The position numbers were made by a program, and so were the translations under genes. The notes beneath the pieces were generated by a model that was not told where the DNA came from, did no database searches, and saw only the letters and a program-made list of their open reading frames with translations. A stretch of DNA of 64,000 nucleotides. Origin: a virus. Below, one piece after another: positions 9,494 through 36,178 of this stretch. The first letter of the stretch is position 1; each line of letters opens with the position of its first letter. The DNA lies in IMG/VR virus record IMGVR_UViG_3300034280_000607, positions 5,338 to 69,337 of that record. One strand, written 5' to 3'.

Positions 9494-12400
9494 TTAGTCT
9501 ATCTGTTTTTTATAATACTCTATCCTGTTTATATTACTCAAGATTGGTAACACCTTAGTCACTTTAAGAGCAGTACGTTCAGCGTCATAGTCCAACTCTC
9601 CATCTTCTTTCTCCACTCCAAATCCGTAATACGTTACAGCTTTTGCAGCAGATCCCCAGTTTCTCATAGTACGTATGATTGGAAATGCCTCACGTTGTAA
9701 CTCAGATACAGAGTTAATACTAATATAATAAGTTAAGTCTCGGTTCAAGTCATGCAGCTGACGCAATACTAGTAAATTATAGATTTTTTTGTCTTTATCA
9801 TCATCTGGTGCCATAGCTTTTAAGAGCAGATAACTCATCCATAATGTAGTGATTATCTGTATTTCTTTGACAGCTTTTTTAAAGTTAGCAAGGACCATCT
9901 CGTCTTGAATATCTAGTCTTCGTCCCATCATAGCATCAAACATCATTCCAATAACAGCAAGTTTCTTTTCTCCTGCTAAACGTAAAAATGTTCTATAGTA
10001 ACCTTCTTCATCACGATCTAGTAAAGCATCCTTGTGTCGAGGATCCCATCTCACACCAATAGTTTCAGGTAACCAGGATTTAAACAAGAATAACAAACGA
10101 CCAATAGCGTTATCTCTACCCTTTACAAAAATATCGTTACCTGTTGCACCATGAAGTTTGTTTGCCAGCTGACGGTACTTCAATATCTTCTTATTAAAGA
10201 AATCCTCAAAGCTCAAACCTTCATTTGCATCTGCATTCCATGAACCATATATTGCTTCATCATAGTCCCGTTCTTCATTGAGTACATCCCAGAAAGACAC
10301 ATCTCCTTTAGATGTTTTAACCTGCTCACGTTTCATAGCAGAGAGCATCATCTCAGCTTTAAAGTGATAATCACCACCACTAAGCCAAGTATAAGCTTTT
10401 GGAATCATTTCCCTAAACTTATTAAGTGGAGTTTTCTTATCAGCCAACGTTCTTAAGTACATACCATCAACTCCTTCGACCATTGCTGAGTCACTTAAAA
10501 GTCCAGCTAGTTTACGTGTAAAATTAGTATCATACTTTCCACGGCTCCAGTAATTAGCAGTAGCACCAGTAAGCATCTTGTTGGCCCACATCAGTTCCTT
10601 TTTTCCAAAGTCACGTCCACCTGAAGCATGTATACGATTATTCACTTTACCTACTAATAAGTTTCTAATAGCTGAGAATGGTGCAAAACCAAGAGCTGTT
10701 AGGCGAGTGTTATTAATACCACTATCAATTGCTTTAGTGAGAGAAAACTTACGACCACCAAGTTTATAATACTGCTGAATCTTTGCGTCCCTAGCATCAA
10801 TAATAGTTTTACGATCTTCATCAGAAAGAGTATCATTTGTTTCCAACACTTCATTAAACTTCTTAATATCCTCACTAAGTTTCTGTGCTTCTTTAGCTTT
10901 GGCAGATTTATAACCTAATAAAGGTATTATTTCTTTCCAGTCGTAAAACAGTTCATCACTTTGCCATAGAGAATCTTCTGACTTTAGTCCATAAAAACCT
11001 TTTCTAACTGTAAAGTCAGCCAGCGACTGAATACTAGTAGCATCCTTATCCTGACGCACAAGAGTGTTCAATTTTTTATCAAACTTATATGAACCTTTAG
11101 TGTTCTGAATAATATCATTAATTGTATCTACTTCAGCTTTCACAGTATTTTTATGCTTGTAGATGAGAGCCATATCACTAAAAAGTTTAGCAATTAATCC
11201 CAAGTCAGTAGTACGTTCTTCTACAGCTACATTCTCAGTAATGAATCTGCTTTTAAAGTTTCTGAGTTCTTTACGACTAAAAGGATTAACAGCTGTTTTT
11301 TCTTCAAAACCACTAACAGTTAAAGCATTTACAAACCACTCACCAATACCATTTACAGACTCTTTTAACGAAGTGAATCCGTATTCTTTAGCTAATCTGT
11401 CTGCAATTATAGGAAGAAAGTTACTACCCAAATCTTCAATCTCTTCTTGTGGAAGCCATGTAAGATTATCAGAGATAAATTTTGTAAACCAGGTATAAAA
11501 CTCATAAAGCTTTGGATCAGCAGCTATCTTAGCAAAGTTCTCATCATAATAACCTGAGTCTTTACCACCTAGCGTTTTAACAGGTATCAAATAAGTATAC
11601 CGTGCACCACCATAGGCAGTAATCTTTTCACCAAAGAACTTCTGATTCATATACTTTAGTGGATTATTCATATCATCAAATTCCTCAACTTTATTCTTAA
11701 CATACTGATCATAAGTCATTCCTTGTGGAATAATTGACGGATCAGCAGCTGCCTCACTCATTATTTCATAAGCATATTCTTCTTTACGATTTTCAAAACG
11801 TTCATTCAGCTTGAAAGATTGACTAATAATGTCATTAACTTCCATCTGATTAAAACCCATAGATTTCATACGAGCTATCTCAACATCTCTCTGCTGATCT
11901 GTATAAGCATCCCGATTTATAAACAACAATGCATTAAAAGCAATAGTATTTTTCTCATTCCAAGCATGGTATGTTTTCCAGGCTAAAGACTTTTTAGTTT
12001 TATCGCCTTCTGCTTCTTTAAGATCTTTACGTAGTTTACGATTTACAGATCTTAGGTTATCCCAGAATGTCTGAGAATAACGAGTCACTATACCTAATGT
12101 TTCAACGCCATCACGGTTTTTCTGCTTTTTAATAAAGATGCTAAAATCTTTTATACCTTGAGTCATTTTGTCAATAATAGAATAGTTTTTACTATGCTCT
12201 TTATTTATTTTAAGATTAATCTCTTTTAAAATGTATGCCAAGTGATTAGGCAATGCCACACCTGCAGTGCTTAGTTCACGTGTCCACTCTGTAAGCCTTG
12301 TAGTATCTACTAGTTTAGTAATATCATCTTCAGACAACTTACCGTTTGAAACTTGCTTAATCAGCTCAACAGCCATAGCTTGTGAACGTCTGCTCAAAAG

Positions 12401-12943
12401 AGCATATTCGACCTCATTTTTTTCCAGTTGTTTGCTAAGCTCCGGATCTAGCTTGGGATCATAAATATCTGCAATACCTAAAGCTTCAGGAAGACTCTTC
12501 CAAGTTTCCACTATTGTGTTAGCAAATTGAAGCTCATTAAAAGTCATTGCTTTAGAAGTATACATAGCTTTTACCAACTCAGCGTCTATACGAGCTAGTT
12601 CCAATACAAAGTCTAGCTGCTGGTCGGCATTGGTTTCCAATAAAGCTTTGATAGAGTCAGAAGTTCTGCTAATGATACCATTATAGTAAGCAGTTTTTTT
12701 AAGCTTTACGTCTTTAGAATCTTTACTGTTCTTAATAGCCTGAATAACGTCTTCAGCCTGCTTCTTTCTTTGGTAAAGTACAGTTAATGTATCCTTTACA
12801 ATGTCAGACTGCTTCTGCTTTTTCTGTGTAGCTACTGACTTAAATATATCAACAGGATTCTGCTGGAACAAACCAGTAGCTATACCAGAAACCAGTTCTT
12901 CTTTTGTATACTCTTTACCGTTATATATGTATTTGCAAGCCAT
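9494..12943 (-). CDS. large internal virion (cargo/ejection) protein
   Basis: About 1149 aa; the likely start is ATG at 12943, in a TAATG overlap with the vRNAP stop. It is helical and lies directly downstream of the vRNAP, as in crAss-like phages. It has a late hydrophobic segment (IQIITTLWMSYLLLKAM) and a single Cys at residue 3. Confidence 0.7.
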   Translation of the reverse strand: MACKYIYNGKEYTKEELVSGIATGLFQQNPVDIFKSVATQKKQKQSDIVKDTLTVLYQRKKQAEDVIQAIKNSKDSKDVKLKKTAYYNGIISRTSDSIKALLETNADQQLDFVLELARIDAELVKAMYTSKAMTFNELQFANTIVETWKSLPEALGIADIYDPKLDPELSKQLEKNEVEYALLSRRSQAMAVELIKQVSNGKLSEDDITKLVDTTRLTEWTRELSTAGVALPNHLAYILKEINLKINKEHSKNYSIIDKMTQGIKDFSIFIKKQKNRDGVETLGIVTRYSQTFWDNLRSVNRKLRKDLKEAEGDKTKKSLAWKTYHAWNEKNTIAFNALLFINRDAYTDQQRDVEIARMKSMGFNQMEVNDIISQSFKLNERFENRKEEYAYEIMSEAAADPSIIPQGMTYDQYVKNKVEEFDDMNNPLKYMNQKFFGEKITAYGGARYTYLIPVKTLGGKDSGYYDENFAKIAADPKLYEFYTWFTKFISDNLTWLPQEEIEDLGSNFLPIIADRLAKEYGFTSLKESVNGIGEWFVNALTVSGFEEKTAVNPFSRKELRNFKSRFITENVAVEERTTDLGLIAKLFSDMALIYKHKNTVKAEVDTINDIIQNTKGSYKFDKKLNTLVRQDKDATSIQSLADFTVRKGFYGLKSEDSLWQSDELFYDWKEIIPLLGYKSAKAKEAQKLSEDIKKFNEVLETNDTLSDEDRKTIIDARDAKIQQYYKLGGRKFSLTKAIDSGINNTRLTALGFAPFSAIRNLLVGKVNNRIHASGGRDFGKKELMWANKMLTGATANYWSRGKYDTNFTRKLAGLLSDSAMVEGVDGMYLRTLADKKTPLNKFREMIPKAYTWLSGGDYHFKAEMMLSAMKREQVKTSKGDVSFWDVLNEERDYDEAIYGSWNADANEGLSFEDFFNKKILKYRQLANKLHGATGNDIFVKGRDNAIGRLLFLFKSWLPETIGVRWDPRHKDALLDRDEEGYYRTFLRLAGEKKLAVIGMMFDAMMGRRLDIQDEMVLANFKKAVKEIQIITTLWMSYLLLKAMAPDDDKDKKIYNLLVLRQLHDLNRDLTYYISINSVSELQREAFPIIRTMRNWGSAAKAVTYYGFGVEKEDGELDYDAERTALKVTKVLPILSNINRIEYYKKQID

Positions 12944-15900
12944 TAGCAATTAGTTTTAATGTTCAGTACGTTAATTATAGTATCAAAGTTTTGCTCGATG
13001 TAACTACGATTTACATTCTCTGTAGCAATTGATTTCTGTACAGTTTCTGTACGAGAACCAATCAGACCTATTATGTTTCTAAGACCTTCATCTAAAGCAG
13101 ACCTGTCTTTTACTTGTATACCCAGAGACTTGATAATGTTCATAAGCAGATCTATAAAACGATCCAGAACAGTTTTATCTCCCTGTACTTCTATAGTGTT
13201 CATAAACTGCTGAAAACTTTTATCAGTCATCATCATAGTAACAAAATCATACACACTGGTCAGACCATAGTAAAGTGACTTATCTTTAGCAGACAAGAAC
13301 CCGTCTGTGTTCATTTGGCTCATGGCCATAAGAAGTGATGCAGAGTGCTCAGGATCTTCTAGCATTTTGATTTGCACTTGATCAAAAAGGTTATTAATAG
13401 CTTTTACCCACTTACGCTGCTCCGGAGACAGTGTAGCTTGATCAGCCATCAGCATATCCACTGTAAGATGATGCATCAGCTCATGCATAATAACCTCATG
13501 AATCTTAGCCTTCATATCTTCAATATCAGTTGCATCAACAATGGCTGCTTTAGGATTAATAGTAATAGTCCGAGTAGCACGATTGTAGGTACCAGGATCA
13601 GCTTGAGACATATCTATCTTAAAAGTCACCTGCTCAATAGAACCAGTCTTACTAATAGCAGTAATGATAGCTTTGTTCAAAGGAGAAGTCACCTTGAATA
13701 AATTATTAAGAAAACCTTTATAGTCAGTAACTTGTTTTTCTTTACCAAATAACTCAGTAGTAAATATTTCTACTGCTTCATCTTTTTGATGACTTATTAA
13801 AAGCTCTAAAGGATTAAATACTTCTACTTCCGGAGCTTCGTCAACAGATACACCATCAGTAAACTCATTGTATGTAAAATCTGTTGCTACAATATTCTTA
13901 GGCACAACCAGTTTCTTAGCTGCACGAGACATACCTACGTAGTAAAGTGCATTCTTTTCTGTATTAAACTTAACACCATTACGAGTAATTACAGTGTTAG
14001 TTACTACACTCAAACTGCTTGTATCAAAATATACAATGGGAATAGTCATACCCTGTGACTTATGTACAGTGATACCATATCCAAAGTCTACACCCTTGTC
14101 TATTTCCAGATTAGCATTGATTCCTTTGTGTTTGTCTTTATCATAAAGCTCTACATCATTGATAGCCGGATTAAAAATATACCTGTTACCAGTATTTATT
14201 TCAGCAAGTTGCATACGTATAGTTTGTACTTCTACTAAATAGTTAGAATAAGAAATACCTTTTCTCTGATAAAGCTCATTAAGCTCATGTATTTTTCTAA
14301 GCTTGTCAGCAAGTTCTTTCTTGTTATTCAGCATCTGCTGAGGCGTAAGTTCAAAATCCAAAGAGTCATTAGCTGATAACTGCAAATAGCTGAACGATGC
14401 ACTAGTAGGAAATCCTTTCATACCTGCTTTCTGCAGATCTTCTAAAGCTTTAGATGTACTAGTAATTACTACAGAACCTTCATCTCTTACAGTGACATCT
14501 TGCACCATATAACTTACCGAGTTAGCCAAGTGACCTTTTTCTATCTGCTTAGTTTGAGAACCACCATAACCAACAATTTTTTCACCAGGTTTTAATGGGC
14601 CACTGTAACCCAACACTTGACGTGCAGCTTTATTAATCTTAGCTACACCATCATTAGTATAGTTAATAATAGTGATGTCTTCCAGGTTATTTTTCAAATC
14701 ATCAATCAACTCTTCATTATATTCCGATCTGCTTAACTGCTTCATGTTATCTGAGTTCTCAAACTCATATTCTACAAAGTCAGAATTGTTACGAATGTTA
14801 GTTAAGACAGTAAGAATATTATTATCCTTGGTTCTGAAAACTGTTGTAAGCTCAGACTTGTTAGGATTAGCAAAAGCTTTGGCAAGCTCTTTAGTCTTTA
14901 CACCAGGCATAACTTCAGGAATCTGTTTAGGATCACCCATAAAGATAATTTTAAAACCTTCTGCTTTAGCAGCAGCAACCAACTTCTCAAAGTCTTTATT
15001 AGCAAGCATAGAAGCCTCATCTAAAACAATGACGTTCTTTATTCCGGTAGCCCTGTCAGTAAGCTTTTTAGTAAACTTAGGTCCAGGTTTGCGAGGATCT
15101 CTGGATTCAGTTACAGAAGCCTGTACAGTCATTGGTAATTCCTTAGCTCCATATTTTACAATATTATTACCTAATGCTACAGTAGCAGCATGTGTAGGAG
15201 CCATGTATAAGAACTTAGTAGCTCTTGACTTCTGACCCATGTAACGATCCAAAATACCAATAATAGATGTCTTACCTGTACCTGCATATCCTTCTAAAGT
15301 GTAAGTACCATCAAAGGTTCCATCTCCTGAAGTCCTGGCTTCTACAAAGTCAATAATCTTTTTTAAAGCATCTGCCTGTTCTATACTAAGCTGGAACTCT
15401 GTTGGTACAGTGATTCCATTATAATTAAATGTTGTAGTAGATTCTTCCTGTTGAACCTGCTTTTCCTGTATTGGTGTATTCATCTGTTGCATCACACGAC
15501 GTGTGACATCGTCAGATGTAATTAGGTCAGCATATGAACTTGGTTGAAGAGAGTAAATACGGTTGTCAAAAGCTACATAGTATCTGTTTTCTTTACTACC
15601 AATCTGTATAGTGACAACTTTTTCTGGATACAGGATAGCAGCATGTGTAAGCTGCACTTTCATAAACAGTCCCTTATCTTTTACGAGAGCACCTTTTGCT
15701 CCATTATTATTAGCATAGAAAACATCAAAACTACCTGCGTTTTCTTCTAGGATAAAGTTTCTACCACCATATGTTACCTTGGTAAATAACTCCTGATCCT
15801 CTTGAGGTGCTTTAATAACTTCCTGCTCCTCGTTTTGCTCTGCTAAAATTTCAGCATCTTCAATTACACCATAATAAGCTTCTTGTAAAGCATTAATAAA

Positions 15901-18900
15901 CAAGTTTAGACCACCCGTTTCCCAAACAGTATTCTTATTAGTAGGCTGATGAGTAGCATTACTTAACCATTCCTGACCACCTATTTTAGTAATTTCTTCT
16001 ACCAAACGAGGATGTTGCTTAAGCTTAGCTTCCAGGATCTGTACCATCAGATCATATGTAGATCCTTTACCAAGACCTTCAGGTTTATACTTACCCTTGT
16101 TTTTCTGGTAAGCTTCTTCTGCATCTTTATAAGTAACCCCATCAAATGTAACAGGATAAGACTGAGTCAAATTACCTTTCTGCTTAGCCAGCTCTGTAGG
16201 ATTAGTAAGAGCTGCTGCCAGACCTTTAGAGTTAGAAGAGATTTCTACACCTTGACTAACAGGAGCATCCTGCTTATTCAACAACTTACTAAACCCTTCT
16301 TCAAATACTATATTAGATGGTATCTCTGCAGAAGAGAACATATCAGCCATCTCTTGTGCACTGTATCCGTTCAGGTTTTTACCTGTAGCACTATAGGCTA
16401 CCATGAACTCTTTATCTGAATTACGGTTAGCATGATCATACAACCTTTGTACCTGATAAATAATTTGTGCTTTAGTTCTACTAGGATGTTTTTCTTTAGT
16501 TAAATCTTTAGTTATAATAGCAAAACTTTGACCTTGAGCACCCCAAGCTTGTCCATATTTAGCACCAAACTTTTCTTTAGCTGTTTTAGCTGATCCTGCA
16601 CCGTGCCTTCCTTCTGTATTAGACCCAAACACAAACACTTGGTTAGGTTGCAAGCTTTCTATCTTACCTGTGTAAGTCTTAAGTTTAGTTGTTTCTGCCT
16701 GACTAAATGTTTTTGCATATACATTACGAATAGCCTGCAAAGACTTTTCTATAACTTCTGGCGTACTGAGTGTCCTGCTGCCTATACCTGCAAAGTTCTT
16801 TGTAAGTGTAGGAGTTTCAGTAAGTACAAAGTTTTTAGCATCATAGTCGTATTTATACCAACCTTGTTTTGTACCATCAAACACATACACCGGCTTACCT
16901 TCATTGATAGCCATTTGAACAGCATAGCCTGTACCTCCTTTAACTAAAGGAATAGCTGCTATTCTATTATCCCCAGCTTTATCAGAAGCATTCTCACCAG
17001 GTTGTTTAATAGTACCTAACGCATAAACAGCATCAGCATATTTAACCTGAGCCCAGTTTCTGATGATGTAGTTAGATCTTACAGTTTTATTAGCTGAATC
17101 AGTATACATCATTCTAAATGCAGCAGTAGCTTTTTGAGTACCTTCTGCGTAGTCTGTATCAGAAATATTTACTGGTTTAACACCTGCAGCTCTAAGCTTG
17201 CTAGAATCCAACTCTTTAGCACCTGGTTCTCTGTAATGATTATGTTTAACCACCCCAAACTCTCTACCAATCTGATCCCATTCTGTATCAGAAAGAGCAG
17301 CTCCGCCTGAGTGATTAATAAACTCGGCTGGATTATTAGAACCAGAAACTGCAGGCTGTTGTTGCACAGGAGCTACAGGCGGAACTGTTTCTTGAAATGC
17401 TGCATCATCCTCTACGTTATTATTACCTTCTATAGCTGATACCAGCTCTGGATTGTTGAAGTCATACTCCTTGATACCGTTGTATCCCAGAATATTTATT
17501 CTTTCATATGTAGCAGCACCAGAAGGATCTCCAATAGGACTCACTCTCTTATACAGATAGTTTACATTACGGCTACCTGCTTCTACAAACTCACTTGTAA
17601 ATGTATCATTGATGAGAATATACGGAGGATATTTAAAGTTTACTGTACTTCCTTGTTCTTTAAGAGATTTTGACTCACTGTTTGACAGAGGAACCTTTAA
17701 AGAGTCTGCTATGTTCTTTCCTTTAGAATCAGCTTCAAAATCACCAATCTTAATAGTAAACGTGTTTACATCTTTAAGCTCTTCTTTACCTACTAACTTC
17801 TTTACCACACGCTTAAAAACATTATCTTTTGCTCCTGTAAAACCACTGTAAGTAGAATACTTAAAGGATTTCGCAAACTGCTCAGGATTGTTCTGCACAA
17901 TCTGCAGAACCAAAGACTCCATAGCACCTGGATCATCCATGTGCATACTGTATGCAGAATCTATAACTCCTATAACTTTCTTAAAATCTTCATCACTAAA
18001 GTAATAATCTACGGGAATAAACCTTCCTATGTTACCTGCATCACTAGTTAAGAAAGGATATATAGCCAAGTCTTTAGCAAGCTGACGTATCTCTTCTTTA
18101 TCAGAAGTAGCCAGTTCATAAAACCCACTGATAATGCCTTTCTCATCAATGTCAGATCCAAATAAGGCACGGATACCAATAGTATATGCTTTTTGTCTAG
18201 GAGCCTGTTTGACTTCAATGTTTTTCAAAAAACCATTGCTTTTAAACTCCGGATCTTTAGCAAGGTTCACAATACGTTTACCTAAAGAACTTTCACCATT
18301 AATCATTTGTGCACGCATGCCACGGGCGTTCTGAAATAGTTCCAGTTCCGGCATTGTGTACATATACGCTTTGATACCATTAAAAACAGTATCATACAGA
18401 TTGATATAACTATTTTTTCCAAGCTCTTCTTTGTTCTTACCCTGGTTAGCCATTAGTATATCAACTATACTTTCTATGTTTTTACCAGAGCTGATAGGAA
18501 ATAGAATGTTATACATTTCTTGAGCTACCATCAAACTATGCTTTATAGAAGCTCCAATCTCACCCTGAGCCTGAATTTCCAGCATACCTGTATCTTTATT
18601 ACGCTGAACAGTACCTGCTATATTACTTAGACCAATAAAGTTAGTAGAACCAGAGAGTTTATTTAGCTGATTAAGCTTCTGACGTGTAGCAAATACGTTG
18701 GGACCAATACCCTTGGTATAAGTGTATACACTACCAAGTATAGTGTTTAACTCACGACCAATGTCTTCCATTCTCTTAAACAAATTCAGACTGTCATATT
18801 GAACTGTGTTATACTTAAGCATCATATTACGAACAGAACTATAACCTTTATCTTTAGCTATCTTTTCTAAAATAGTTTCAGCATTTAACTTTTCATTATA

Positions 18901-21900: not shown

Positions 21901-24747
21901 GTTTCCATTCTCTTGTTTAATTATACCGTTAGCCAAAAATTCGTTAATCTGCTGCTCACTAGACTGTTTCATATCTTCCAGAATAGCTTCACCCACTATA
22001 GTGCTATATTTGGCATTAATCTGGTCTAGGTTCATCTGACCGCTATACAGATCATTACGGAACTCTTGTAAAACACTATTAACATTTAAGGAAGGAATAA
22101 AATAAAATAGTCTGCCTGCTAGATCAAAGTTCTCTAGCTTAACATCTTTACTGTGCTTAATAGTAGCCAGTATACGGCTAATCTCAGGTGCTGCAAATGC
22201 AGTGTATGCTCTTTCAGTAAGACCAGATGAATATTGCAGTTCACCTTGTTCGTTCAAGAAGTAGTCACGACCTTTACCCAAAGGCTGGTCATCATTATCT
22301 ATAAAGAACTCCTTAGTCATCTTGGTCTCAATAGTAGTGGTCTTATCAGACAATGTAAAGTTGATATAAGTAGCAACATTGAGGTTCTCCTGATGCTTGA
22401 GCAGCATAGTAACTGTCTGCTCTTTATCTGTAAGAGACTTTCTCACCTTACCGTCTTTACCAGCTTCCTGTTCACGGATACCGTTAAAGTACTGAGGAAT
22501 AAAAGTGCTAATTCCTTTCTTTACACTTTCCCAAAATGATTTATTAGGACGTCCCAGTGCACTGTTAGTAACAGAAACAGTTTGCCCAAGCTTCCACTGA
22601 CGTTTCTTATTTTCAATATAGTTAGGAAGTATGTATAGATACTTCTGTTTACCATCTGCTGTTTGTGCAGAGGGAATCTTGTACTTACCAGGATTTGCTT
22701 CATAGTAGAGGATAGCCAGCTTACGCATAGAACCTTTCTCATCCTGAAAACCATAATTGTCTTCAAACACTAATTCTGCATTATCTGCATAAGACTTGTA
22801 GATATTATCTAATAGATTGTTCTTGGCAAAGATGACATCAAAATCATTGCCTTTACTAAGAGCTTTAGCTATCCGGGGTGTGATATAATCCAGTTCTTTA
22901 TCTGTAAACTCAATACCCAGTGTAGCAAAGAACTCTTTAAACTTAACCACCTTGTCTTTACCTACAGCAGTCTTACCTTCTTCTATCAACTTGGCAAGTT
23001 TTTCTATTTTAGCAAGATTAGGTTTTAGTTCATTCAGTGCAGAACGCTTGAAGAATTCTGATTGCTTGTGCACTTCCAACCAATCACGGGATATTTGGTC
23101 TTCTACTGTATCACGATTTGAGTTGATCACCTTTACATCAGTGATACCAGTTACCTGATTTCCATCCTTACGGGTTTTATATAAAAGCAAGGTCTCTTGA
23201 GCAAAAGCTTTAGTAGCAAAGGTTAAAATGTCATTGATCTTGTCCCACTCATTGTTTTTTTCAAAACGGTTAAGCTTAGTTAGAAAATCATTCAGGTAAG
23301 GTCTTGCATCTGAACGCTTGTATAAACTAGCCTTAAAAGCATTCAGTTTACCTGCAGTATCAGTAAATCCAGTAAGAGCCATTTCACTACCTGCATACAA
23401 GATATCAGCAAACACATCATTAGAATCTGCATATATAGGAATACCAAGCTCATACTCACCGGTCTTGATAGTTTGTACCAAAGCTTTTACACGTACAGAA
23501 GCCGTGTCTCGAGGGTTTGTTTCAAATACACTACGATCAAAACGTTCACCTACTTCTTCCTGTGAGATTTCAACATCCTCATTATTATCTACTTCTTGAT
23601 TAGCTACATCCTGAGAATCTATTGTCTGTATAGCGTTCTTAACCATCCGGATACCTTTCCGAGCAAGTTCAGCTACAACAGCATCCTTGTATTTGTCAAA
23701 GTTGTTTACAATCGTATCATATGTTTCTGCAGCTTTAACCATGTCTTCATAATTATTGACATATGCAAGTACTGGAAACTCATTCAAAATATCATTATAA
23801 GACGATGAAGCTTTTACATCTGCCAAGTCTTGGTCAGAATTGATGATTCCATTAAGAGCCATCTTTAGGTTATCTGCTACTTCTGAGTAGATACCTTTCA
23901 CTGTACGAAATGCTTCAGCTGGTGTAATGTCTAGCTTTTTATTAGGAGCAATATCACCTAGAGTGTTAATCACGCTAGCCATAATATGAGAAGTATACTT
24001 CAGATCATTCTGAGAACGGATTAGATCTTTGTTAATGCCAGCTGCAATCTGTTCTGTAGACTTTGTCCTAATAGAACGGAACAAAACTCCTCCCTGATTA
24101 ACAGGATTTTGAGCTACATACCTTTTAAAACTCTCCTGGTCTTGCTTACTGCCCAGTATGAGAATCTGCTCAGGTTCAAATACAGCAACCGTACTTCCTT
24201 CTTTCTGTCCGGCATCTATACCTATTACAGCATCATAGTTTCCACCCTGGGTTTTAATAATTCTAGGATTAGTGTACTCATCTGTATTATGTACTTCTTC
24301 AGGAACGTCTGCAAGTTCTGAGGGAGAATTATAAGGTTTCTGAACGTTGACAACAGCAGATATAACTTTTCTCTTTATGAGGAAACCAAAAGTTTCAGCG
24401 TAGCTTTTAGCTGTGGTAAAGTAGGTAACATATCCTTTGAACTTACCATCTGCAGGTAATAAGTGTTCCATTGCACCATGGTACATTACATCTTTGACCT
24501 TACTATCCGGAAAGATAGTATTTACATATGCATTATACTGGTCTAAGTTACCAATATCAGAAAGCTCTTTTGAACCATTAAATACCTCAGCTACCCCAGG
24601 TTTTACTAAAGATCTATCTGCTACTACTTGATAGTTATCAGCACTGGGGATCTTTCCATAAATCAAAAACTCTTTCCAAGCACGGTTTTCACCGACCTTA
24701 GCAACCAAAGCTTTCCACTCCGGACTGGTAATGTTAGGACAAATCAT
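12943..24747 (-). CDS. virion-packaged RNA polymerase (crAss-like, double-psi beta-barrel), polyvalent fusion with ART-like, SLOG-like, macro-like, NADAR-like, RecD/Dda-like SF1B helicase and zincin peptidase domains
   Basis: Catalytic GSDFDVDKL (DFDVD at 20131-20145) is preceded by RIPNQ. Helicase motifs: GYAGTGKT (15268-15291), DEASM, GDPKQI, YGITVHKSQG, YVGMSRA. Zincin motif HELMH at 13471-13485. Confidence 0.88.
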   Translation of the reverse strand: MICPNITSPEWKALVAKVGENRAWKEFLIYGKIPSADNYQVVADRSLVKPGVAEVFNGSKELSDIGNLDQYNAYVNTIFPDSKVKDVMYHGAMEHLLPADGKFKGYVTYFTTAKSYAETFGFLIKRKVISAVVNVQKPYNSPSELADVPEEVHNTDEYTNPRIIKTQGGNYDAVIGIDAGQKEGSTVAVFEPEQILILGSKQDQESFKRYVAQNPVNQGGVLFRSIRTKSTEQIAAGINKDLIRSQNDLKYTSHIMASVINTLGDIAPNKKLDITPAEAFRTVKGIYSEVADNLKMALNGIINSDQDLADVKASSSYNDILNEFPVLAYVNNYEDMVKAAETYDTIVNNFDKYKDAVVAELARKGIRMVKNAIQTIDSQDVANQEVDNNEDVEISQEEVGERFDRSVFETNPRDTASVRVKALVQTIKTGEYELGIPIYADSNDVFADILYAGSEMALTGFTDTAGKLNAFKASLYKRSDARPYLNDFLTKLNRFEKNNEWDKINDILTFATKAFAQETLLLYKTRKDGNQVTGITDVKVINSNRDTVEDQISRDWLEVHKQSEFFKRSALNELKPNLAKIEKLAKLIEEGKTAVGKDKVVKFKEFFATLGIEFTDKELDYITPRIAKALSKGNDFDVIFAKNNLLDNIYKSYADNAELVFEDNYGFQDEKGSMRKLAILYYEANPGKYKIPSAQTADGKQKYLYILPNYIENKKRQWKLGQTVSVTNSALGRPNKSFWESVKKGISTFIPQYFNGIREQEAGKDGKVRKSLTDKEQTVTMLLKHQENLNVATYINFTLSDKTTTIETKMTKEFFIDNDDQPLGKGRDYFLNEQGELQYSSGLTERAYTAFAAPEISRILATIKHSKDVKLENFDLAGRLFYFIPSLNVNSVLQEFRNDLYSGQMNLDQINAKYSTIVGEAILEDMKQSSEQQINEFLANGIIKQENGNFSFPTSINGFKNTDYINRLRQSGLKGRDLARLMMMDMKLNYINTQVKMIQFLRFDPALAFKSFKDFNKASKFNEISGEDKVKLVSSTWDEFSKRAAALIAPGAQGSYSWKMKNGESYSSSNYQAFTAADVEYKIGDTENTITDAQEYITLNEHIDNLMSEGKISLEIWQLIYDKIQKAGPGGYYELSDKELGYVFTPTKPVHVNDVDEATADAGLNRIDYVKSSRYPLIPQHEAGSERDKLRQWMEQNGIQAVNFASAKKLGRPIKSVALFNENGSEFIEPSKDDLAAARQTLSRDGLRTQQEIPHQKDEIRTVSQMNRTLFDNMLNETFSLKGIKEMSGTQAKSLKELVRSRLFDLQVQQLQKELGDLNRSHRGLHRLLKDVIINDTTGSYGENDLKSIELDEKTGKFLMPLEQQFKLKKFQGLINSMINKNVMLKVEGSSFVQVSGVGAKYNFSNLAKGVKSGIIWTDSYAKSFKDGDVKLNYIRKEGDEVKPAQVIVSQYLRDANGKLVDLSKYITEEKVGNTTVKILNTSKMPAELFQLVGTRIPNQSHPSMLPIEVVGFLPAYMENTIIVPDGITGQMGSDFDVDKLYAYATKFNYKDNTIEKLGANQEEYTELVAAAKKIAKAAGEQADDKGIYSNFNNYLAQAVKNKYGNNEVPKFKVERPSTFELVNYKLDSTEDVENMNEEQLGQLYRDIHWMVLTHPAAYDKITKSIDMPEVKRKVAEREVELEKYGITSDKDVMLPLDFITSINRFNDNRSGKVGVGVFANLISAQADFQDKVLRLGMVVDDLEKENPIKIKLSKKGKVIDLLYLGQPGSSNSFIGKTRNISENLNMMFTESVDNAKNQFLREFNWEEKAMSAIGVFEMLTDADGNAAPIEFVMDLTSQGAIKHLFTLMDQKQDSFGEYDSNAMETAMLEIQSKIAERLMKQGYFGSMAEVEQYLEDQDRDQALDPETLEDMWLIGKAIEAGALSQYNFVNQIEQKEQLSYKDPESGIEYNEKLNAETILEKIAKDKGYSSVRNMMLKYNTVQYDSLNLFKRMEDIGRELNTILGSVYTYTKGIGPNVFATRQKLNQLNKLSGSTNFIGLSNIAGTVQRNKDTGMLEIQAQGEIGASIKHSLMVAQEMYNILFPISSGKNIESIVDILMANQGKNKEELGKNSYINLYDTVFNGIKAYMYTMPELELFQNARGMRAQMINGESSLGKRIVNLAKDPEFKSNGFLKNIEVKQAPRQKAYTIGIRALFGSDIDEKGIISGFYELATSDKEEIRQLAKDLAIYPFLTSDAGNIGRFIPVDYYFSDEDFKKVIGVIDSAYSMHMDDPGAMESLVLQIVQNNPEQFAKSFKYSTYSGFTGAKDNVFKRVVKKLVGKEELKDVNTFTIKIGDFEADSKGKNIADSLKVPLSNSESKSLKEQGSTVNFKYPPYILINDTFTSEFVEAGSRNVNYLYKRVSPIGDPSGAATYERINILGYNGIKEYDFNNPELVSAIEGNNNVEDDAAFQETVPPVAPVQQQPAVSGSNNPAEFINHSGGAALSDTEWDQIGREFGVVKHNHYREPGAKELDSSKLRAAGVKPVNISDTDYAEGTQKATAAFRMMYTDSANKTVRSNYIIRNWAQVKYADAVYALGTIKQPGENASDKAGDNRIAAIPLVKGGTGYAVQMAINEGKPVYVFDGTKQGWYKYDYDAKNFVLTETPTLTKNFAGIGSRTLSTPEVIEKSLQAIRNVYAKTFSQAETTKLKTYTGKIESLQPNQVFVFGSNTEGRHGAGSAKTAKEKFGAKYGQAWGAQGQSFAIITKDLTKEKHPSRTKAQIIYQVQRLYDHANRNSDKEFMVAYSATGKNLNGYSAQEMADMFSSAEIPSNIVFEEGFSKLLNKQDAPVSQGVEISSNSKGLAAALTNPTELAKQKGNLTQSYPVTFDGVTYKDAEEAYQKNKGKYKPEGLGKGSTYDLMVQILEAKLKQHPRLVEEITKIGGQEWLSNATHQPTNKNTVWETGGLNLFINALQEAYYGVIEDAEILAEQNEEQEVIKAPQEDQELFTKVTYGGRNFILEENAGSFDVFYANNNGAKGALVKDKGLFMKVQLTHAAILYPEKVVTIQIGSKENRYYVAFDNRIYSLQPSSYADLITSDDVTRRVMQQMNTPIQEKQVQQEESTTTFNYNGITVPTEFQLSIEQADALKKIIDFVEARTSGDGTFDGTYTLEGYAGTGKTSIIGILDRYMGQKSRATKFLYMAPTHAATVALGNNIVKYGAKELPMTVQASVTESRDPRKPGPKFTKKLTDRATGIKNVIVLDEASMLANKDFEKLVAAAKAEGFKIIFMGDPKQIPEVMPGVKTKELAKAFANPNKSELTTVFRTKDNNILTVLTNIRNNSDFVEYEFENSDNMKQLSRSEYNEELIDDLKNNLEDITIINYTNDGVAKINKAARQVLGYSGPLKPGEKIVGYGGSQTKQIEKGHLANSVSYMVQDVTVRDEGSVVITSTSKALEDLQKAGMKGFPTSASFSYLQLSANDSLDFELTPQQMLNNKKELADKLRKIHELNELYQRKGISYSNYLVEVQTIRMQLAEINTGNRYIFNPAINDVELYDKDKHKGINANLEIDKGVDFGYGITVHKSQGMTIPIVYFDTSSLSVVTNTVITRNGVKFNTEKNALYYVGMSRAAKKLVVPKNIVATDFTYNEFTDGVSVDEAPEVEVFNPLELLISHQKDEAVEIFTTELFGKEKQVTDYKGFLNNLFKVTSPLNKAIITAISKTGSIEQVTFKIDMSQADPGTYNRATRTITINPKAAIVDATDIEDMKAKIHEVIMHELMHHLTVDMLMADQATLSPEQRKWVKAINNLFDQVQIKMLEDPEHSASLLMAMSQMNTDGFLSAKDKSLYYGLTSVYDFVTMMMTDKSFQQFMNTIEVQGDKTVLDRFIDLLMNIIKSLGIQVKDRSALDEGLRNIIGLIGSRTETVQKSIATENVNRSYIEQNFDTIINVLNIKTNC

Positions 24748-24763
24748 AGGATATAGGGTGGGA

Positions 24764-27700
24764 TTACATTATCTTATCTAACTTTCCTCTCAGGCCTGAA
24801 CAGTTTTCTTTTTGTTCTTCTACCTGTTGTTCTTGTAGCTTCTTAGCTTTGAGGGCTGCCAAGAGAGCTGCTCCTTTATCTTCACGTGGAGTATTAACCT
24901 GTTCCACTGTAGGAGCTGGTGTGGTTTCTTTTTGTTCCTGTATTCCTTCATTAGGATCTGTGACACCAGTCACTCCCATTTTCACCACAGGATTGGCAAA
25001 ATATACCCAGTCACTAAAGGCATTCTTACTTTGAATACCCTTATCTACAAAAGTTCCAGCACGGTCCATGATATATTGATTATACATCATTTTTTCTTTA
25101 ACTAATTTACCGTTTATAATTGAAAGTATGGTAGCCTTTTCTGTAGAGTTGATACCCTTAAGACTATCATTCTTTACATTAGTAAACTTGATAGTGGTTC
25201 TAAGATTAGTCATTTTATACAGATAATCCACTGGCAATTGTTCTGCCTTGGTTATTGGCTGTTTAGTAGCAAACCATTCACCGTTGACATCTTTTACCTG
25301 CAGTTCTAGTTCACCATTAGTAGTAATGTTAATACGAGCACTTCCAGGGCGGACATCAGTACCATTTCCTGTACGGGAAATATTCTTACTATCTACTTGA
25401 GTGATGTAATGATCTATATACTGTCTCAGTATCCCAATAGCAAAACCATCTGCAGACCGTGTAAGCCCCATGGCTTCATATACAGCATCGATCATTTCAG
25501 GATTATTAGTCTGCCCTGTAAAAGCCTTCCATGCCTCTATAATAAAGTTTGCCTGATCTACAGAAACATTTGGCAGCTTGATAAAAGAAGGATACCATTG
25601 ACCAACGGGAGTAGGGAGCATAAGAACAGCTACACCCTGATAGTCAGCAATATTCTGAGGAGAAAAAGTCTCTGTAGCAATAATATTATCTACTGCAACA
25701 TTACGATCTGACTGTATACTACCATCTCTTACAATAGCAAATACACCATGACGGTTATCAATACCACCCTCAGCAATCCTTGGATTTAACCGCTTACTAA
25801 TTGGCTCTATAGATTCTGTAGTTCTTAGTATACCCATAGATTTATCTTCTACAATACCCTGTATAACAAAGTTATGATTTTTGTTGTAGCTATCCAAGAT
25901 TAACTTACGAAGTTCTCTATTTTTTATGACCTCTTGTTTTACCACTTCAGGGACTGCCTGATCGAGCTGATCTTCAGGAATAGCAATATGAGGATACTTC
26001 TCTCTAATTTTATACTCAATCCACTGTGGCTCATGTATGGTGCCTATCATGGTTTCTTTTCCACGGATGTTTGCAAACACTCCAATAGGAATAAAGTCAT
26101 ACTTGTTCTGAATAGCATTCAAGTTCTCATCATAAAGAGCACTCTTGTCGTACTTCTCACCAGTAAGACGGTTAACTACCTGCTCAAATCCACTTACCAT
26201 TACTTTAAACGTTACACTATGACCAGGCATAAAACTGCTAGTGGCTACATCAAAGACATAGTTTTTGTTTACCTCTCCTCTTTCATAGCGGATCTGGTTA
26301 GTAGCAAACTCTACTACGTTTACAATATCTGTAGTATTGGCCAATGAGTTAGAAGGAGCTACTTGTCTGTAACCTTCCTGGTATTCAGCATTAGCCAGAG
26401 TATTATTCTTATTTGACTGAGTACGATATTGATTAATATCCTGTACAAAGTCTTTAACATCGTTAGATGTATCCTCTTCCTGCTGCTCCTCACTTTCCAC
26501 TTCCGGCTCAGTCTGCATCTGTGCATACTTAGCTTCTATAATAGCCTTATCCTGATTGTATTTATCTAGAATAGATTTAGGATTCTTGGAATAAAGCTTA
26601 GTAAATGCTTCAGGATAATATCCAAGTGCAGACGATGCCTGATTGCTAGCTGTTTTTGGATTAAAACTTTGTTCCGGACCATCATTCTTACGATACTCTA
26701 AACTACGTCCATACTTATCCTTTTTAGAAACAACCTGATATTTGTTACCTTCTTTATCATATCCTATAGAACCTGGTTTCATAAACCTGAGTTCTGTAGT
26801 AAAACCAAGATCTTTACGTAACTGATTACCAAGGTCTTCCAGTTCCTTTTCTAACGTAGATCCAGGAGCCTGTTGTTCTGACACTTGCTCAGCACCCTGT
26901 TCTTGTTGTTTGATAAAACTTCTTACCTGGGAAAGTAATTGTTCCCTGGCTGAAATATTTCCTTTAGCAAACTCTTTTACAACTGCCTCAGGAAAACTAC
27001 CCAGTACCCAATCAAAAGCTTCTACAATTTCTCCAGCATCTCTAACGCGGTCTACTATGTTCTCAATATCCTGGTTGGCTATTAAAGCCTGCTCTATTTG
27101 TTTAGCAACATTAACCGTAAGTTCTTGAGTTTCTTCAGCAGGTTTAGCTCCTTCTAAAGCAGCTAGTTCTGCATCATATTTAGCATTAATTTTATCCTCT
27201 GTTATTAATTGATCTTCAAAATATTTAAAATCTTTTTTTATTTTTTCATATTTTTCTTTTTGAGCTGTTAGCTCGTTCATTCTCTTAAAATCCTGTTTGT
27301 ATTTAGCTGAAGGATAGTGTCTATTATAATCAAGAATATATGAATCTGCAAGTTCAAATTCTTTTAAATTTTTTAATTCTTCTTTTCTTCTTCTTTCTAT
27401 ATCAGTAATTGCTTTAAATAAAGCTGGATATTTATTTACTACGCTACCTACTACAGTAGGTTCTTTTGGATTTTCTAAAAAGAACTTAACCAGTTTTACT
27501 AACTCTTTAAATTCAGAAGAAGTTATGTTTTGTTTCTCAGCTTCTACATCAGAAACAGAAATTGCAGTAGAAGCTTTCTTTCTAATTATTTCATTTATCT
27601 CTGATGTCTTACCAGAAAAGATTGCTGTTTCTCTTTGAGACAATGATTCACGAGCAATTATTTTATCTGCAATAGAGTTTAAAACATCATTTGGTATAAT

Positions 27701-30700
27701 ATTTTTATCTATATAATTATTATATATATCATCTGTAATTACATCAGAAACAGGAGCTGTAGAATTACTAGACTGTTGCTGTCCTTTCTTAGACATCCAC
27801 AGTTTAGTCAGTGCAACACCTGCTGTCTTCTTCCACTCTGCATAAGAAGGTATCTTTATATTCTGTGCCTCAGATGCCTCCTTAGCCATGTTATATTCTT
27901 GTTGCAGAAATGTTTCTAGATCATCAGGATAAGTTTTAGCTGATGTAGGTTGTTGTTGTGTAGCTATAGGTTTAGACTCTATCTTTGGTGTCTGAGGAGG
28001 TTTTACAGGAACAACTTTTCCTTCAGCCAAAGCTTTTTGAAACTCTTCCTGAGTCATACTCAAACTATTATTTTCATCAGCTGACTTTACATTCATCATT
28101 ATTACATCATTACCAAGCATCATAATGTTGTATAGACTACCTTGATATGAGTAAGATAAATCTGGATCAATAGTGGCCTGAGTCTGATTAGATGCTGCAG
28201 GTGGAATAGAACCTGTTGGTCCAGAAGGTGAAGTAGCAGGAGGCAGTTCTGCCTGCTTATTTTCCTCTTCAACAATGTTATTAATAGGTGTTCTGATCTG
28301 TTCTTCTATGAACATATCAAGAAAGTTCTTCTTTCCGTTCTCAAAGTCTGCGTAGTAACCCCATTCTTGCCCCAAGGACTCAATATGATTATCCAACTCT
28401 CCTTTATACTTCATTTTCTTATAAAGAGGATTTAAAAAAGCAATATTGTTACGTTCCTCTTTCTCATACTGGTAAAGACCATTATTAAATGTGCTTAATG
28501 TCTTTACACTAGTCTCATTGTTTTTCTTAAGTTGCGTTAACTTGTCATTCAAGTTATCCAAAAGTGTCTCAGCAATAGTAACCTGTGATTTAGTAAGTTG
28601 ATCAGGAGAAGACTTTAGCTCTTTAATATATTGCTCCTGACTTATAATTCTTAGCTTAATTGCATTTAATTGATCTACTAATCCATCACTCAGAGATGAG
28701 TTTTCAGAATTGATCATCTCGTTACGAATATCATTATACTTATTTTGTTCTTCTGCAGCAAGACCTCTGTATACAGCCTGCTGTGCTGCCAGCTCAGTCA
28801 AACGAGCCTTACGGGCTAAGTCTTCTTTACTACCGTCAAAAATAATATCATTATTAATTATCTTATTCTGCTTTATAATATTAGACGCTAATGTTTTATA
28901 TCTTGCAAGCTGTTCATTCAATGTATCATCTACAGCAAATCCCAACTTAGCTAAATCCTCAGGTGAACTTTTAGCAATAGAGTCCAACTTCTTAAGTAAT
29001 GTTCCCTCCATATTAGCATTAATATGAGCTAATACAAAATCTGCAAAAGCATTATCTCTCACCATGTTTCTGCGACTTATATTAGTATCTGTATCTGTGA
29101 TATCTATGGCTGCAGCATTAGACCTTACAGAACTGGTTATACCAGCAAGCTTCTGCTTATCCATGATAGGTTGACCACTTTGGTCCAGCTTTATCTTTTC
29201 TATAACGATATCATTTCCATTTTCATCTTTAGAAGTTACTTCTTCAGTTTCATATATGTTACCAAACTTTAACCAGGATTGCTGAGCTCTATTGTAATAA
29301 TCAACAGCTTCTTCAGTTGTAAGTTTATTTTTAGCTGTCTGACTACGGTTAGCTATAGCTGTTTGACCACCACCCAAAATACCACCCAGACCAATACTAG
29401 TAGAAGTTTCAATAGACTCCTGAGTTTTTTCACCAAAAAAAGCATCTTTTGTTTGTGAATAATACTGTTCACCTAATCCTTTATAAGTATTAAAATCCAG
29501 CATGTCTGCTACTTTACCCTTTGTTCCATACTGAGTATTAAAACGCTGAATAGCAAGCTGTCCATTCTCTTCTATAATACCTTCCCTAAAAATACCATTA
29601 ACAACATCTTTACTAAATCTTCCATATCCTGATTGTAAAAACTTACCAACTTTAGTAGTAGCTTCTTTTACAGCTACCTCTTCTCCAAAGTTTAATCCAC
29701 CTTTAATTCCTTTTGCAACACCTTCTGTTTTATTTAATATTTTAGAAACAAGAGGAAGTTCAAATACATTAGTTACTCCTAAAAGAGCAGCATTCATTAA
29801 AAAAGCATTGCGGGCATTATCACCAGCTATTCTCTTTTTTTGATCTTCTGTAAAGCTGCTATTTTCCAAGGCTTTCATAATATCATCCTTGACACCTTTA
29901 GCTTCAAACATAGCTTCTGATGATGTAGCAATAGCCCAAGAATTAAATTTATCCAAGTACTCAGCATATTTAACTGCATTCTTAAAATAATTAGTAGTAG
30001 CTCCTACAGCTTCAATAGTACCAGCTACACTTGAAGCACCTTCAGTAGCCAAGCCTAACTTAGCTAAAGCGTTAATAGCTTTTACTCCAGCACCCACTTT
30101 ACTTAGTGCCATACCTGGTATCCAAGCTGAAGCCATGAATGCTAATCCATCCACTACATCTTCAGACCAAAAGTCTATATCTGTAAATGCTCTGGAAAAA
30201 AAACCTTTATTTCTATCTTCTGCTTCCTGAAAAGCTGGTAACCATTGGTTCTTAATATCGTTTTCCCAGCTGTCAAAAAAATTACTGATACCATTATCTG
30301 CCACAGCTGATATATAACCATTTTCATCAAACCAGTTAAAAGGATTGATTAAACCTGTTATAAAACCAACACCTGATCCCAGTTTAGTAGCTGTATAAAG
30401 AGGTAACTTTAGAAGTCCTTTACCAAACTTTTCTAAACCAGATTGCTGTTGGGCATAGTAATCCTCATTATCAATAAGAGGATTAAATCCGTAATCAGCA
30501 TTCAGTACTTTTTCTGTACCTTTTTCGGCAACAGATCTATATTGTTTAAACAAGTTTTCATTCTGACTTACATAACTTGTAGAAAGCTTATTATTAAAAA
30601 AGTTACTAGCTTGTAAAAAATCAACTGATTTTTTTCCATCAGGAACAGGATCTACAGGCCCCTGAGGTGTAAGAGAAGCTCCAAATTGATCTATTTGAAA

Positions 30701-30733
30701 ATCTGATGTATATTGATCTAAAGTTTGTGGCAT
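24764..30733 (-). CDS. large internal virion (cargo/ejection) protein
   Basis: 1989 aa, with N-terminal Gly/Ala-rich hydrophobic helices, coiled coils and a modular middle region. It lies directly upstream of the vRNAP and has a single Cys near the C-terminus. Confidence 0.7.
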   Translation of the reverse strand: MPQTLDQYTSDFQIDQFGASLTPQGPVDPVPDGKKSVDFLQASNFFNNKLSTSYVSQNENLFKQYRSVAEKGTEKVLNADYGFNPLIDNEDYYAQQQSGLEKFGKGLLKLPLYTATKLGSGVGFITGLINPFNWFDENGYISAVADNGISNFFDSWENDIKNQWLPAFQEAEDRNKGFFSRAFTDIDFWSEDVVDGLAFMASAWIPGMALSKVGAGVKAINALAKLGLATEGASSVAGTIEAVGATTNYFKNAVKYAEYLDKFNSWAIATSSEAMFEAKGVKDDIMKALENSSFTEDQKKRIAGDNARNAFLMNAALLGVTNVFELPLVSKILNKTEGVAKGIKGGLNFGEEVAVKEATTKVGKFLQSGYGRFSKDVVNGIFREGIIEENGQLAIQRFNTQYGTKGKVADMLDFNTYKGLGEQYYSQTKDAFFGEKTQESIETSTSIGLGGILGGGQTAIANRSQTAKNKLTTEEAVDYYNRAQQSWLKFGNIYETEEVTSKDENGNDIVIEKIKLDQSGQPIMDKQKLAGITSSVRSNAAAIDITDTDTNISRRNMVRDNAFADFVLAHINANMEGTLLKKLDSIAKSSPEDLAKLGFAVDDTLNEQLARYKTLASNIIKQNKIINNDIIFDGSKEDLARKARLTELAAQQAVYRGLAAEEQNKYNDIRNEMINSENSSLSDGLVDQLNAIKLRIISQEQYIKELKSSPDQLTKSQVTIAETLLDNLNDKLTQLKKNNETSVKTLSTFNNGLYQYEKEERNNIAFLNPLYKKMKYKGELDNHIESLGQEWGYYADFENGKKNFLDMFIEEQIRTPINNIVEEENKQAELPPATSPSGPTGSIPPAASNQTQATIDPDLSYSYQGSLYNIMMLGNDVIMMNVKSADENNSLSMTQEEFQKALAEGKVVPVKPPQTPKIESKPIATQQQPTSAKTYPDDLETFLQQEYNMAKEASEAQNIKIPSYAEWKKTAGVALTKLWMSKKGQQQSSNSTAPVSDVITDDIYNNYIDKNIIPNDVLNSIADKIIARESLSQRETAIFSGKTSEINEIIRKKASTAISVSDVEAEKQNITSSEFKELVKLVKFFLENPKEPTVVGSVVNKYPALFKAITDIERRRKEELKNLKEFELADSYILDYNRHYPSAKYKQDFKRMNELTAQKEKYEKIKKDFKYFEDQLITEDKINAKYDAELAALEGAKPAEETQELTVNVAKQIEQALIANQDIENIVDRVRDAGEIVEAFDWVLGSFPEAVVKEFAKGNISAREQLLSQVRSFIKQQEQGAEQVSEQQAPGSTLEKELEDLGNQLRKDLGFTTELRFMKPGSIGYDKEGNKYQVVSKKDKYGRSLEYRKNDGPEQSFNPKTASNQASSALGYYPEAFTKLYSKNPKSILDKYNQDKAIIEAKYAQMQTEPEVESEEQQEEDTSNDVKDFVQDINQYRTQSNKNNTLANAEYQEGYRQVAPSNSLANTTDIVNVVEFATNQIRYERGEVNKNYVFDVATSSFMPGHSVTFKVMVSGFEQVVNRLTGEKYDKSALYDENLNAIQNKYDFIPIGVFANIRGKETMIGTIHEPQWIEYKIREKYPHIAIPEDQLDQAVPEVVKQEVIKNRELRKLILDSYNKNHNFVIQGIVEDKSMGILRTTESIEPISKRLNPRIAEGGIDNRHGVFAIVRDGSIQSDRNVAVDNIIATETFSPQNIADYQGVAVLMLPTPVGQWYPSFIKLPNVSVDQANFIIEAWKAFTGQTNNPEMIDAVYEAMGLTRSADGFAIGILRQYIDHYITQVDSKNISRTGNGTDVRPGSARINITTNGELELQVKDVNGEWFATKQPITKAEQLPVDYLYKMTNLRTTIKFTNVKNDSLKGINSTEKATILSIINGKLVKEKMMYNQYIMDRAGTFVDKGIQSKNAFSDWVYFANPVVKMGVTGVTDPNEGIQEQKETTPAPTVEQVNTPREDKGAALLAALKAKKLQEQQVEEQKENCSGLRGKLDKIM

Positions 30734-33254: not shown

Positions 33255-33256
33255 AC

Positions 33257-33306: not shown

Positions 33307-33312
33307 TAATGT

Positions 33313-36174: not shown

Positions 36175-36178
36175 AATA

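Follow-up and report, generated by a model that had tools for sequence, protein, structure and literature searches.

Paired terminal cysteines at the junctions of the RNA-polymerase cargo proteins of a crAss-like phage: a candidate disulfide-joined ejection chain

The stretch analysed here (the window) comprises 64,000 nucleotides of the IMG/VR virus record IMGVR_UViG_3300034280_000607 (positions 5,338–69,337) and derives from a crAss-like phage, with a G+C content of ~29–37% in the window. Three consecutive giant open reading frames (ORFs), all on the minus strand and in the order A, then B, then C, are predicted from their sequences to encode a crAss-type RNA-polymerase (RNAP) cargo trio, of which B is the virion RNA polymerase (vRNAP). 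The subject of this report is the cysteine (Cys) residues of the three proteins, which are found only at the chain ends that face each other across the A|B and B|C junctions. The genes and residues concerned are:

24764–30733, minus strand: protein A, 1989 amino acids (aa); RNAP-associated cargo protein, a homologue of phi14:2 gp67 by the A-family hidden Markov model (HMM).
12943–24747, minus strand: protein B (vRNAP), 3934 aa; virion RNA polymerase with added enzyme domains.
9494–12943, minus strand: protein C, 1149 aa from its ATG; mostly helical cargo protein.
24800–24802, minus strand: Cys1978 of A, the 12th residue from the C-terminus and the sole Cys of A.
24739–24741, minus strand: Cys3 of B, in the N-terminal motif M-x-C-P-N..S..W.
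12946–12948, minus strand: Cys3934 of B, its last residue, invariant in alignment A2.
12935–12937, minus strand: Cys3 of C, its sole Cys, in the motif M-[ASGP]-C-x-Y.

The A-family HMM matches phi14:2 gp67 with an E-value of 1.7e-21. Residues ~1090–1670 of B match phi14:2 g066 ('Catalytic RNA polymerase subunit') and related FpV4 proteins in tBLASTn searches, and the RNAP core HMM matches phi14:2 gp66, crAss001 gp50 and FpV4 gp32. The C-family HMM gave no sequence match to phi14:2 gp65 or crAss001 gp49, and the designation of C as the counterpart of these proteins rests on its position, size and N-terminal Cys. Pfam returned no match for A or C, PHROGs returned no family for A, C or two further large proteins of the window (838 and 953 aa), and a tBLASTn search of C against the phage collection gave a single weak hit, which was unrelated. 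The ATG of C shares one base with the TAA stop of B (TAATG), adjoining both Cys codons; the longest ORF of C begins at a TTG two codons before this ATG and would specify 1151 aa. The trio proteins of phi14:2 and crAss001 are packaged in the virion, according to sections of bioRxiv 10.1101/2020.03.07.982082 and PMC10172136, and packaging and ejection of the window trio are predicted by analogy with these cultured relatives.

A first-pass annotation, made from the sequence by eye, had reported four Cys in ~7,070 aa, and translation of the three ORFs confirmed both the number and the positions; internal Cys in A, B and C number zero, and none had been missed. With the 35 other ORFs of the window as background (138 Cys in 10416 aa, 1.32%), the 7072 aa of A, B and C would be expected to hold ~94 Cys rather than 4 (binomial P ~4e-35). 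Given four Cys, the chance that one falls in each of the four facing 12-residue junction termini is ~2e-10. The whole presumed ejected block is Cys-poor, its six large ORFs (the trio and three ORFs upstream of A, described below) having 6 Cys in 10056 aa.

Homologues of C (49–83% identity) begin with M-x-C in 53 of 53 cases and have a C-terminal Cys in none (0/53); Cys3 is invariant in alignment A1 and is the only Cys in 32 of the 53 proteins. All 40 homologues of A carry a Cys within the last 16 residues, the sole Cys in 35 of them, and an N-terminal Cys is found in 0/40. In a 28-sequence alignment (A3), the Cys of A is one of only 15 invariant columns of 1989. The N-terminal residues C3, P4, N5, S8 and W11 of B are likewise invariant in a 36-sequence alignment (A2); at its last-residue Cys both TGT and TGC are in use among homologues, and the spacing between the stop and the following start varies. 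A wider set of giant RNAP-like proteins (120 proteins of 2172–6631 aa) was scored for Cys in the first 8 and last 12 residues. Both terminal Cys were present in 88/120, usually as part of a total of 2–3 Cys in 3000–5000 aa; 16 had the C-terminal Cys only, 7 the N-terminal only and 9 neither. Of the 16 proteins with the C-terminal Cys only, at least three (P0098, P0147, P0164) are fragments or gene calls truncated at the N-terminus. The terminal Cys thus recur in orthologues, and the two outer ends of the trio (where A begins and C ends), which the first-pass annotation had described as Cys-free in the window, are so throughout both families.

The pairing across junctions was also examined on single contigs. 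At the B|C junction, a survey of 51 IMG/VR loci, 16 of which ran beyond the fetched flank, found the Cys pair in 13/13 loci with both sides visible, and a Cys within the first 9 residues in 35/35 of the complete C-type ORFs. At the A|B junction (15 loci, of which 9 extended beyond the flank and 1 was unreadable), the C-terminal Cys of A was followed by an ORF with Cys3 in 5/5 loci with a visible end of A. Twelve named phages were added, spanning the Steigviridae, Suoliviridae, Intestiviridae, Crevaviridae and the FpV4 group: phi14:2, crAss001, cr112_1, cr116_1, FpV4, cr113_1, cr109_1, cr118_1, cr53_1, cr107_1, LMMB and cr127_1. Their split junctions carry the Cys pair in 16 of 16 cases, with the gut-phage proteins assigned to A, B or C by order, size, RNAP position and record annotation, as gut crassvirus proteins are too distant to be matched by the window HMMs for A and C. 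The A gene of crAss001, cr112_1 and cr116_1 is encoded on the strand opposite to B and C and has kept its C-terminal Cys, so gene adjacency is not the cause of the Cys pattern. Together with the use of both Cys codons and the varying spacing, this points to selection on the residue and not on the DNA. One genome appears unbalanced: in cr116_1 (L008, 9088–23799), gp49 (833 aa) ends in Cys and lacks an N-terminal Cys, and the match to the RNAP core HMM breaks off where gp51 ends (model position 433 of 536), followed by the Cys-rich gp50 of 215 aa. Here gp51 and gp49 are probably parts of a single B gene into which an element has been inserted, and the imbalance an effect of annotation.

In some relatives, neighbouring proteins of the trio are fused. 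In 11 of the giant proteins, the C-family HMM placed a C domain at the C-terminal end. A C-terminal Cys is present in 0/11 of these B–C fusions, internal Cys are absent from 9/11, and no Cys was found in the predicted junction regions of the 11; all of the proteins with an N-terminal Cys only (7/7) are among these fusions. The converse is seen in P0109, an A–B fusion with the A domain at its N-terminus, which has no N-terminal Cys and has kept the C-terminal one. Named phages show the same two arrangements. Apparent A–B fusions (FpV4 gp32, cr113_1 gp38, and proteins of cr118_1 and cr53_1) are very long, with the RNAP core ~1500 residues further downstream; their N-terminal Cys is absent, the C-terminal Cys is present, and the next protein, C, has Cys3 or Cys4. 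Apparent B–C fusions in cr107_1, LMMB and cr127_1 are ~4100 aa in length, have Cys3 or Cys4 and lack a C-terminal Cys, and the A protein preceding them ends in Cys; the LMMB record annotates its ~4100-aa protein as a fusion. On a tree of 102 RNAP cores (FastTree), parsimony gives at least six changes of B–C fusion state, the deep branches being weak. In these sequences, the fusion of two neighbours removes exactly the Cys pair of that junction and leaves the pair of the other junction in place. The pairs are lost or kept independently on fusion, and this fits a pairing of the A C-terminus with the B N-terminus and of the B C-terminus with the C N-terminus, which agrees with the head-to-tail arrangement proposed in the first-pass annotation.

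The N-terminal Cys peptides seem to behave as transferable modules (L006, L012, L067 and L075; in the window, nt 24712–24747 and 12908–12943, minus strand). The sequence C-P-N..S-P-E-W-K heads B in the clade of the window, but heads C in the Suoliviridae cr113_1 and cr118_1, and C-K-Y.[YL].G.E-Y, found at the start of C in the window, stands at the start of B in the clade of L067 and L075. Within any one phage, the N-terminal Cys modules of the two junctions always differ.

B has the following domains and motifs:

20131–20145, minus strand: catalytic DFDVD motif (DFDxD) of the two-barrel RNAP, B residues 1535–1539.
13903–15393, minus strand: helicase module (AAA_30/PIF1/UvrD_C_2), B residues 3119–3615; AAA_30 E-value 6e-22, Cys-free.
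13471–13485, minus strand: HExxH motif (H3755, E3756, H3759) in the C-terminal domain of B, invariant in alignment A2.

The significance of the DFDxD motif is described in part of bioRxiv 10.1101/2020.03.07.982082. That the helicase module contains no Cys bears out the observation, made at first pass, that the enzyme domains of the RNAP are Cys-free. The HExxH motif lies ~175 residues ahead of the terminal Cys, and similarity to SprT-like and Zincin_1 domains at this site is weak and below the Pfam threshold. A zincin-like domain is reported for phi14:2 gp65 in a section of the same bioRxiv text, and the LMMB record annotates one in protein A, so that these domains and the window motif (in B) lie in different members of the trio. 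Among vRNAP homologues, precomputed Pfam annotations list a varying set of accessory domains, including an AlkB-type dioxygenase (PF13532), DUF1768/YbiA (PF08719), SprT (PF10263), PF18760, PF25176 and RNase H (PF00075), and one homologue, P0137, has Hint/intein and LAGLIDADG domains. The structure model of C is mostly helical (mean predicted local distance difference test score, pLDDT, 74), with an N-terminal beta-hairpin (residues 5–12) and helix (residues 14–22) connected to the body by a low-confidence linker (residues 28–44). In the model, Cys3 stands at the tip of this small hairpin–helix module on its linker and is probably exposed. A Foldseek search of the C model against the PDB returned no match at E ≤ 0.001. 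Complex prediction for B residues 3680–3934 with C residues 1–180 (alignments A2 and A1) gave a score of 0.02 (mark 0.32) and is used neither for nor against any reading.

The reading preferred here, with a probability of roughly 55%, is that A, B and C are held together by two inter-chain disulfides as a single, nearly linear chain, the equivalent of the polyprotein found in fused relatives. The facing terminal Cys (A C-terminus with B N-terminus, B C-terminus with C N-terminus) would form these bonds after the proteins have been packaged in the virion, turning the trio into an almost unbranched chain of ~7000 residues, the covalent counterpart of a single polyprotein. With the links at the extreme ends, any side branch would be kept to a few residues, and the partly unfolded chain could thread the tail one protein after another. 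A disulfide formed beforehand would be unreactive with periplasmic thiol oxidases, and its reduction in the cytoplasm would free the three proteins. We infer the disulfide chemistry, the ordered ejection and the reductive release from several lines of argument: the Cys pairs are interchangeable with peptide bonds; the extreme-end position minimises branching in a narrow channel; all other Cys have been purged, as would be expected if free thiols were liable to cross-link during storage or on passage through the periplasm; Cys3 of C is probably exposed; and disulfides are already known in crassvirus particles. Extended to the Crassvirales and FpV4-like phages at large, the proposal would be of a redox-released 'ejection train' of ~5600 aa (phi14:2) to ~7000 aa (window), held by two separate terminal disulfides that are evolutionarily interchangeable with a polyprotein. 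Each joint would have its own terminal peptide modules, and the bonds, once formed within the particle, would persist through the periplasm until the reducing cytoplasm cut them. This wider version falls a little short of even odds.

The same conservation and fusion evidence would serve if the terminal peptides shared a metal ion (a thiolate bridge) or simply docked, joining the proteins head-to-tail without a disulfide. No oxidant would then be needed, which suits anoxic gut phages and cytoplasmic assembly, and B has an HExxH metal site close to its C-terminus. A metal bridge would, however, have only two thiols per junction, and other conserved His or Cys ligands were not seen beside them in alignments A1, A2 and A3, and a bridge of two ligands would presumably be weak under ejection force. 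A single site of four Cys is rejected, since the two junctions are lost independently, and an intramolecular pair between the two ends of B is excluded, each junction being lost or kept on its own. Joining by metal or docking is considered unlikely. Each terminal Cys may instead act alone. It would then tether its chain end to another part of the virion, such as the portal, the inside of the capsid or one of the smaller cargo proteins, or serve as a mark for packaging or ordering, and would vanish in fusions simply since those chain ends no longer exist. In favour of this are the lone terminal Cys of the LMMB 861-aa protein and of FpV4 gp30, and the crAss001 cargo protein gp45, which contacts the portal and tail barrel according to part of PMC10172136. 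Independent action leaves unexplained why the N-termini of A and the C-termini of C are devoid of Cys (0/40 and 0/53), and why every break in the named phages has one C-terminal and one N-terminal Cys (16/16 junctions), and it is regarded as improbable.

A further alternative is suggested by the invariant HExxH of B with its weak SprT/Zincin_1 similarity, and by the zincin-like domains of phi14:2 gp65 (bioRxiv 10.1101/2020.03.07.982082, in part) and of LMMB protein A: the Cys could be a 'cysteine switch' that blocks a catalytic zinc until ejection, or could mark sites of proteolytic processing. A switch needs one Cys and not four in two pairs; moreover, the zincin domain moves between proteins across lineages while the Cys stay at every junction, and fusions keep the domains yet lose the Cys, which makes this explanation very unlikely. 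Chance, or a by-product of nucleotide constraint at overlapping stop and start codons, would find support in the TAATG overlap of B and C beside both Cys codons. It can be given almost no weight, as the positional probability in the window is ~2e-10 and the pattern was found in every family and genome examined; a nucleotide or translational-coupling artefact is rejected by the use of both TGT and TGC, the varying spacing, and the opposite-strand A genes of crAss001, cr112_1 and cr116_1.

Several observations weigh against the disulfide-joined chain or narrow its support. The disulfide chemistry is a proposal drawn from sequence patterns. Assembly takes place in the reducing cytoplasm and gut crassviruses with the same pattern live in an anoxic habitat, so that spontaneous oxidation is not assured. 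The fusion status of the FpV4 and gut-phage proteins depends on length, position of the RNAP core and record annotation, since the A and C HMMs do not reach them. Five giant proteins have neither a C-terminal Cys nor a detectable C domain, and an independent-pairs test of co-change yielded only two supported pairs, which carries no statistical weight. In P0066, a close relative of the window vRNAP, the first ~45 residues, including the Cys module, are replaced by an unrelated Cys-free segment of ~100 residues; the N-terminal module thus seems to have been genuinely exchanged, with no evident fusion. Unpaired ends also occur among the smaller cargo-block proteins: the LMMB 861-aa protein (L011, 2763–5348) has only Cys 860, with no visible partner, and FpV4 gp30 (L005, 2225–4021) has only Cys5, the preceding gp29 being without a C-terminal Cys. 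In gut lineages, finally, a trio protein may have up to ~10 internal Cys. With these points included, the disulfide train is put forward as a strong hypothesis, drawn from comparison of sequences.

Upstream of A, the block continues with three more large ORFs:

30738–39760, minus strand: three further large Cys-poor ORFs of 838, 953 and 1193 aa, with 0, 2 and 0 Cys, respectively.
36179–39760, minus strand: the 1193-aa Cys-free protein, matching phrog_2307 (L-alanyl-D-glutamate peptidase) at residues 846–990 (E-value 2.2e-14).

The 838-, 953- and 1193-aa proteins are probably other ejected proteins, and the peptidase match suggests that the 1193-aa protein is probably an ejected cell-wall hydrolase. 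The first-pass annotation had described neighbouring external structural proteins as Cys-rich. This holds for some, namely a 409-aa ORF without a family (51190–52419, minus strand; 21 Cys, 5.1%) and a window protein of 1602 aa (15 Cys), but not for a tail-fibre-like protein of 1310 aa (54399–58331, minus strand), which has 0 Cys; among the other structural genes, Cys content thus reaches both very high and very low extremes. Beyond the window, internal Cys are nearly absent from the trio of marine and freshwater phages (phi14:2, FpV4), as they are from that of the window, and are more numerous in several human-gut lineages, although the sample is small. The giant cargo genes of the Suoliviridae cr113_1, cr109_1 and cr53_1 (L006, L007, L014) contain many in-frame stops under translation table 11 (70 in cr109_1 gp53, for example), a pattern compatible with the reassignment of stop codons in late genes.

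The crAss001 structure raised the question of how several megadaltons of protein can be kept in a crassvirus particle and passed in order through a narrow tail, and a conserved, covalent head-to-tail link, if true, would supply a concrete mechanism for ordered delivery. It would also explain why these genes have fused and split so freely in evolution. The mechanism is directly testable, as phi14:2 and crAss001 are in culture and have the same four Cys. In addition, the Cys pairs offer an easy way of recognising protein junctions, wrongly called starts and genes split by introns from the sequence of the many uncultured crAss-like genomes, and they refine the published idea of Cys avoidance, in that ejected proteins would avoid all Cys except those already paired.

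Among known systems, a close parallel in composition is that of the Schitoviridae (N4-like phages), whose T7-like polymerase is unrelated to the two-barrel enzyme of crAss-like phages. As in the window, N4 gp50, gp51 and gp52 and DEV gp71, gp72 and gp73 are giant ejected vRNAPs and companions with Cys far below the level of the proteome. The N4 vRNAP is a single chain of 3500 aa, and gp50, gp51 and gp52 have 0 Cys each. The suppression of Cys in ejected proteins of Schitoviridae has already been published: sections of PMC11445570 report near-zero Cys in homologues of DEV gp71, gp72 and gp73, cite an earlier note on N4 gp50, and propose passage through the disulfide-forming periplasm as the selection against Cys. 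The premise that Cys-poverty of ejected proteins was new accordingly falls, and the general depletion seen here is therefore a further case of the N4-like suppression. The difference is that Cys are wholly absent in Schitoviridae, whereas in the window exactly the junction-terminal Cys are kept and conserved; these junction pairs are the new element. No description of terminal Cys in crAss cargo proteins was found in the literature searched, either by full-text searches or by in-text term search of the available text of PMC10172136, bioRxiv 10.1101/2020.03.07.982082, PMC7886860, PMC10136315 and PMC8954989. The word 'cysteine' occurs 0 times in the texts of the phi14:2 and crAss001 papers (the second and first of these, respectively), and neither refers to cysteines or disulfides in the trio proteins.

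Split inteins resemble the proposal in that separately encoded polypeptides are joined end to end with a Cys at the joint. They differ in requiring flanking Hint halves, for which the termini leave no room; with the Cys 0–15 residues from the C-terminus and at residues 3–6 of the N-terminus, a split intein or trans-ligation is rejected, and Pfam found no Hint-type domain at the C-terminal ends of A and B or in the whole of C. Disulfides between subunits of a crassvirus particle are known from the crAss001 tail, where they join the tail hub to ring proteins (PMC10172136, in part). They are like the bonds proposed here in being inter-subunit, but they staple a static external structure, while the window pairs stand at the chain ends of internal, ejected proteins; for the crAss001 cargo, a section of the same text proposes partial unfolding during ejection. 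The nearest relatives are the trios of phi14:2 (gp67/gp66/gp65) and crAss001 (gp47/gp50/gp49), both of which share the RNAP core and the terminal Cys layout with the window, and the former also the A-family homology (gp67). The window B is far larger than its cultured-phage counterparts (3934 aa), with helicase and HExxH modules. Polyproteins that unite the A, B and C parts of the crAss RNAP trio in a single chain are described in part of bioRxiv 10.1101/2020.03.07.982082, and have the same domain order as the window. In the fusions the parts are joined by a peptide bond and the junction Cys are missing, whereas the split trio has a Cys pair at each of its junctions.

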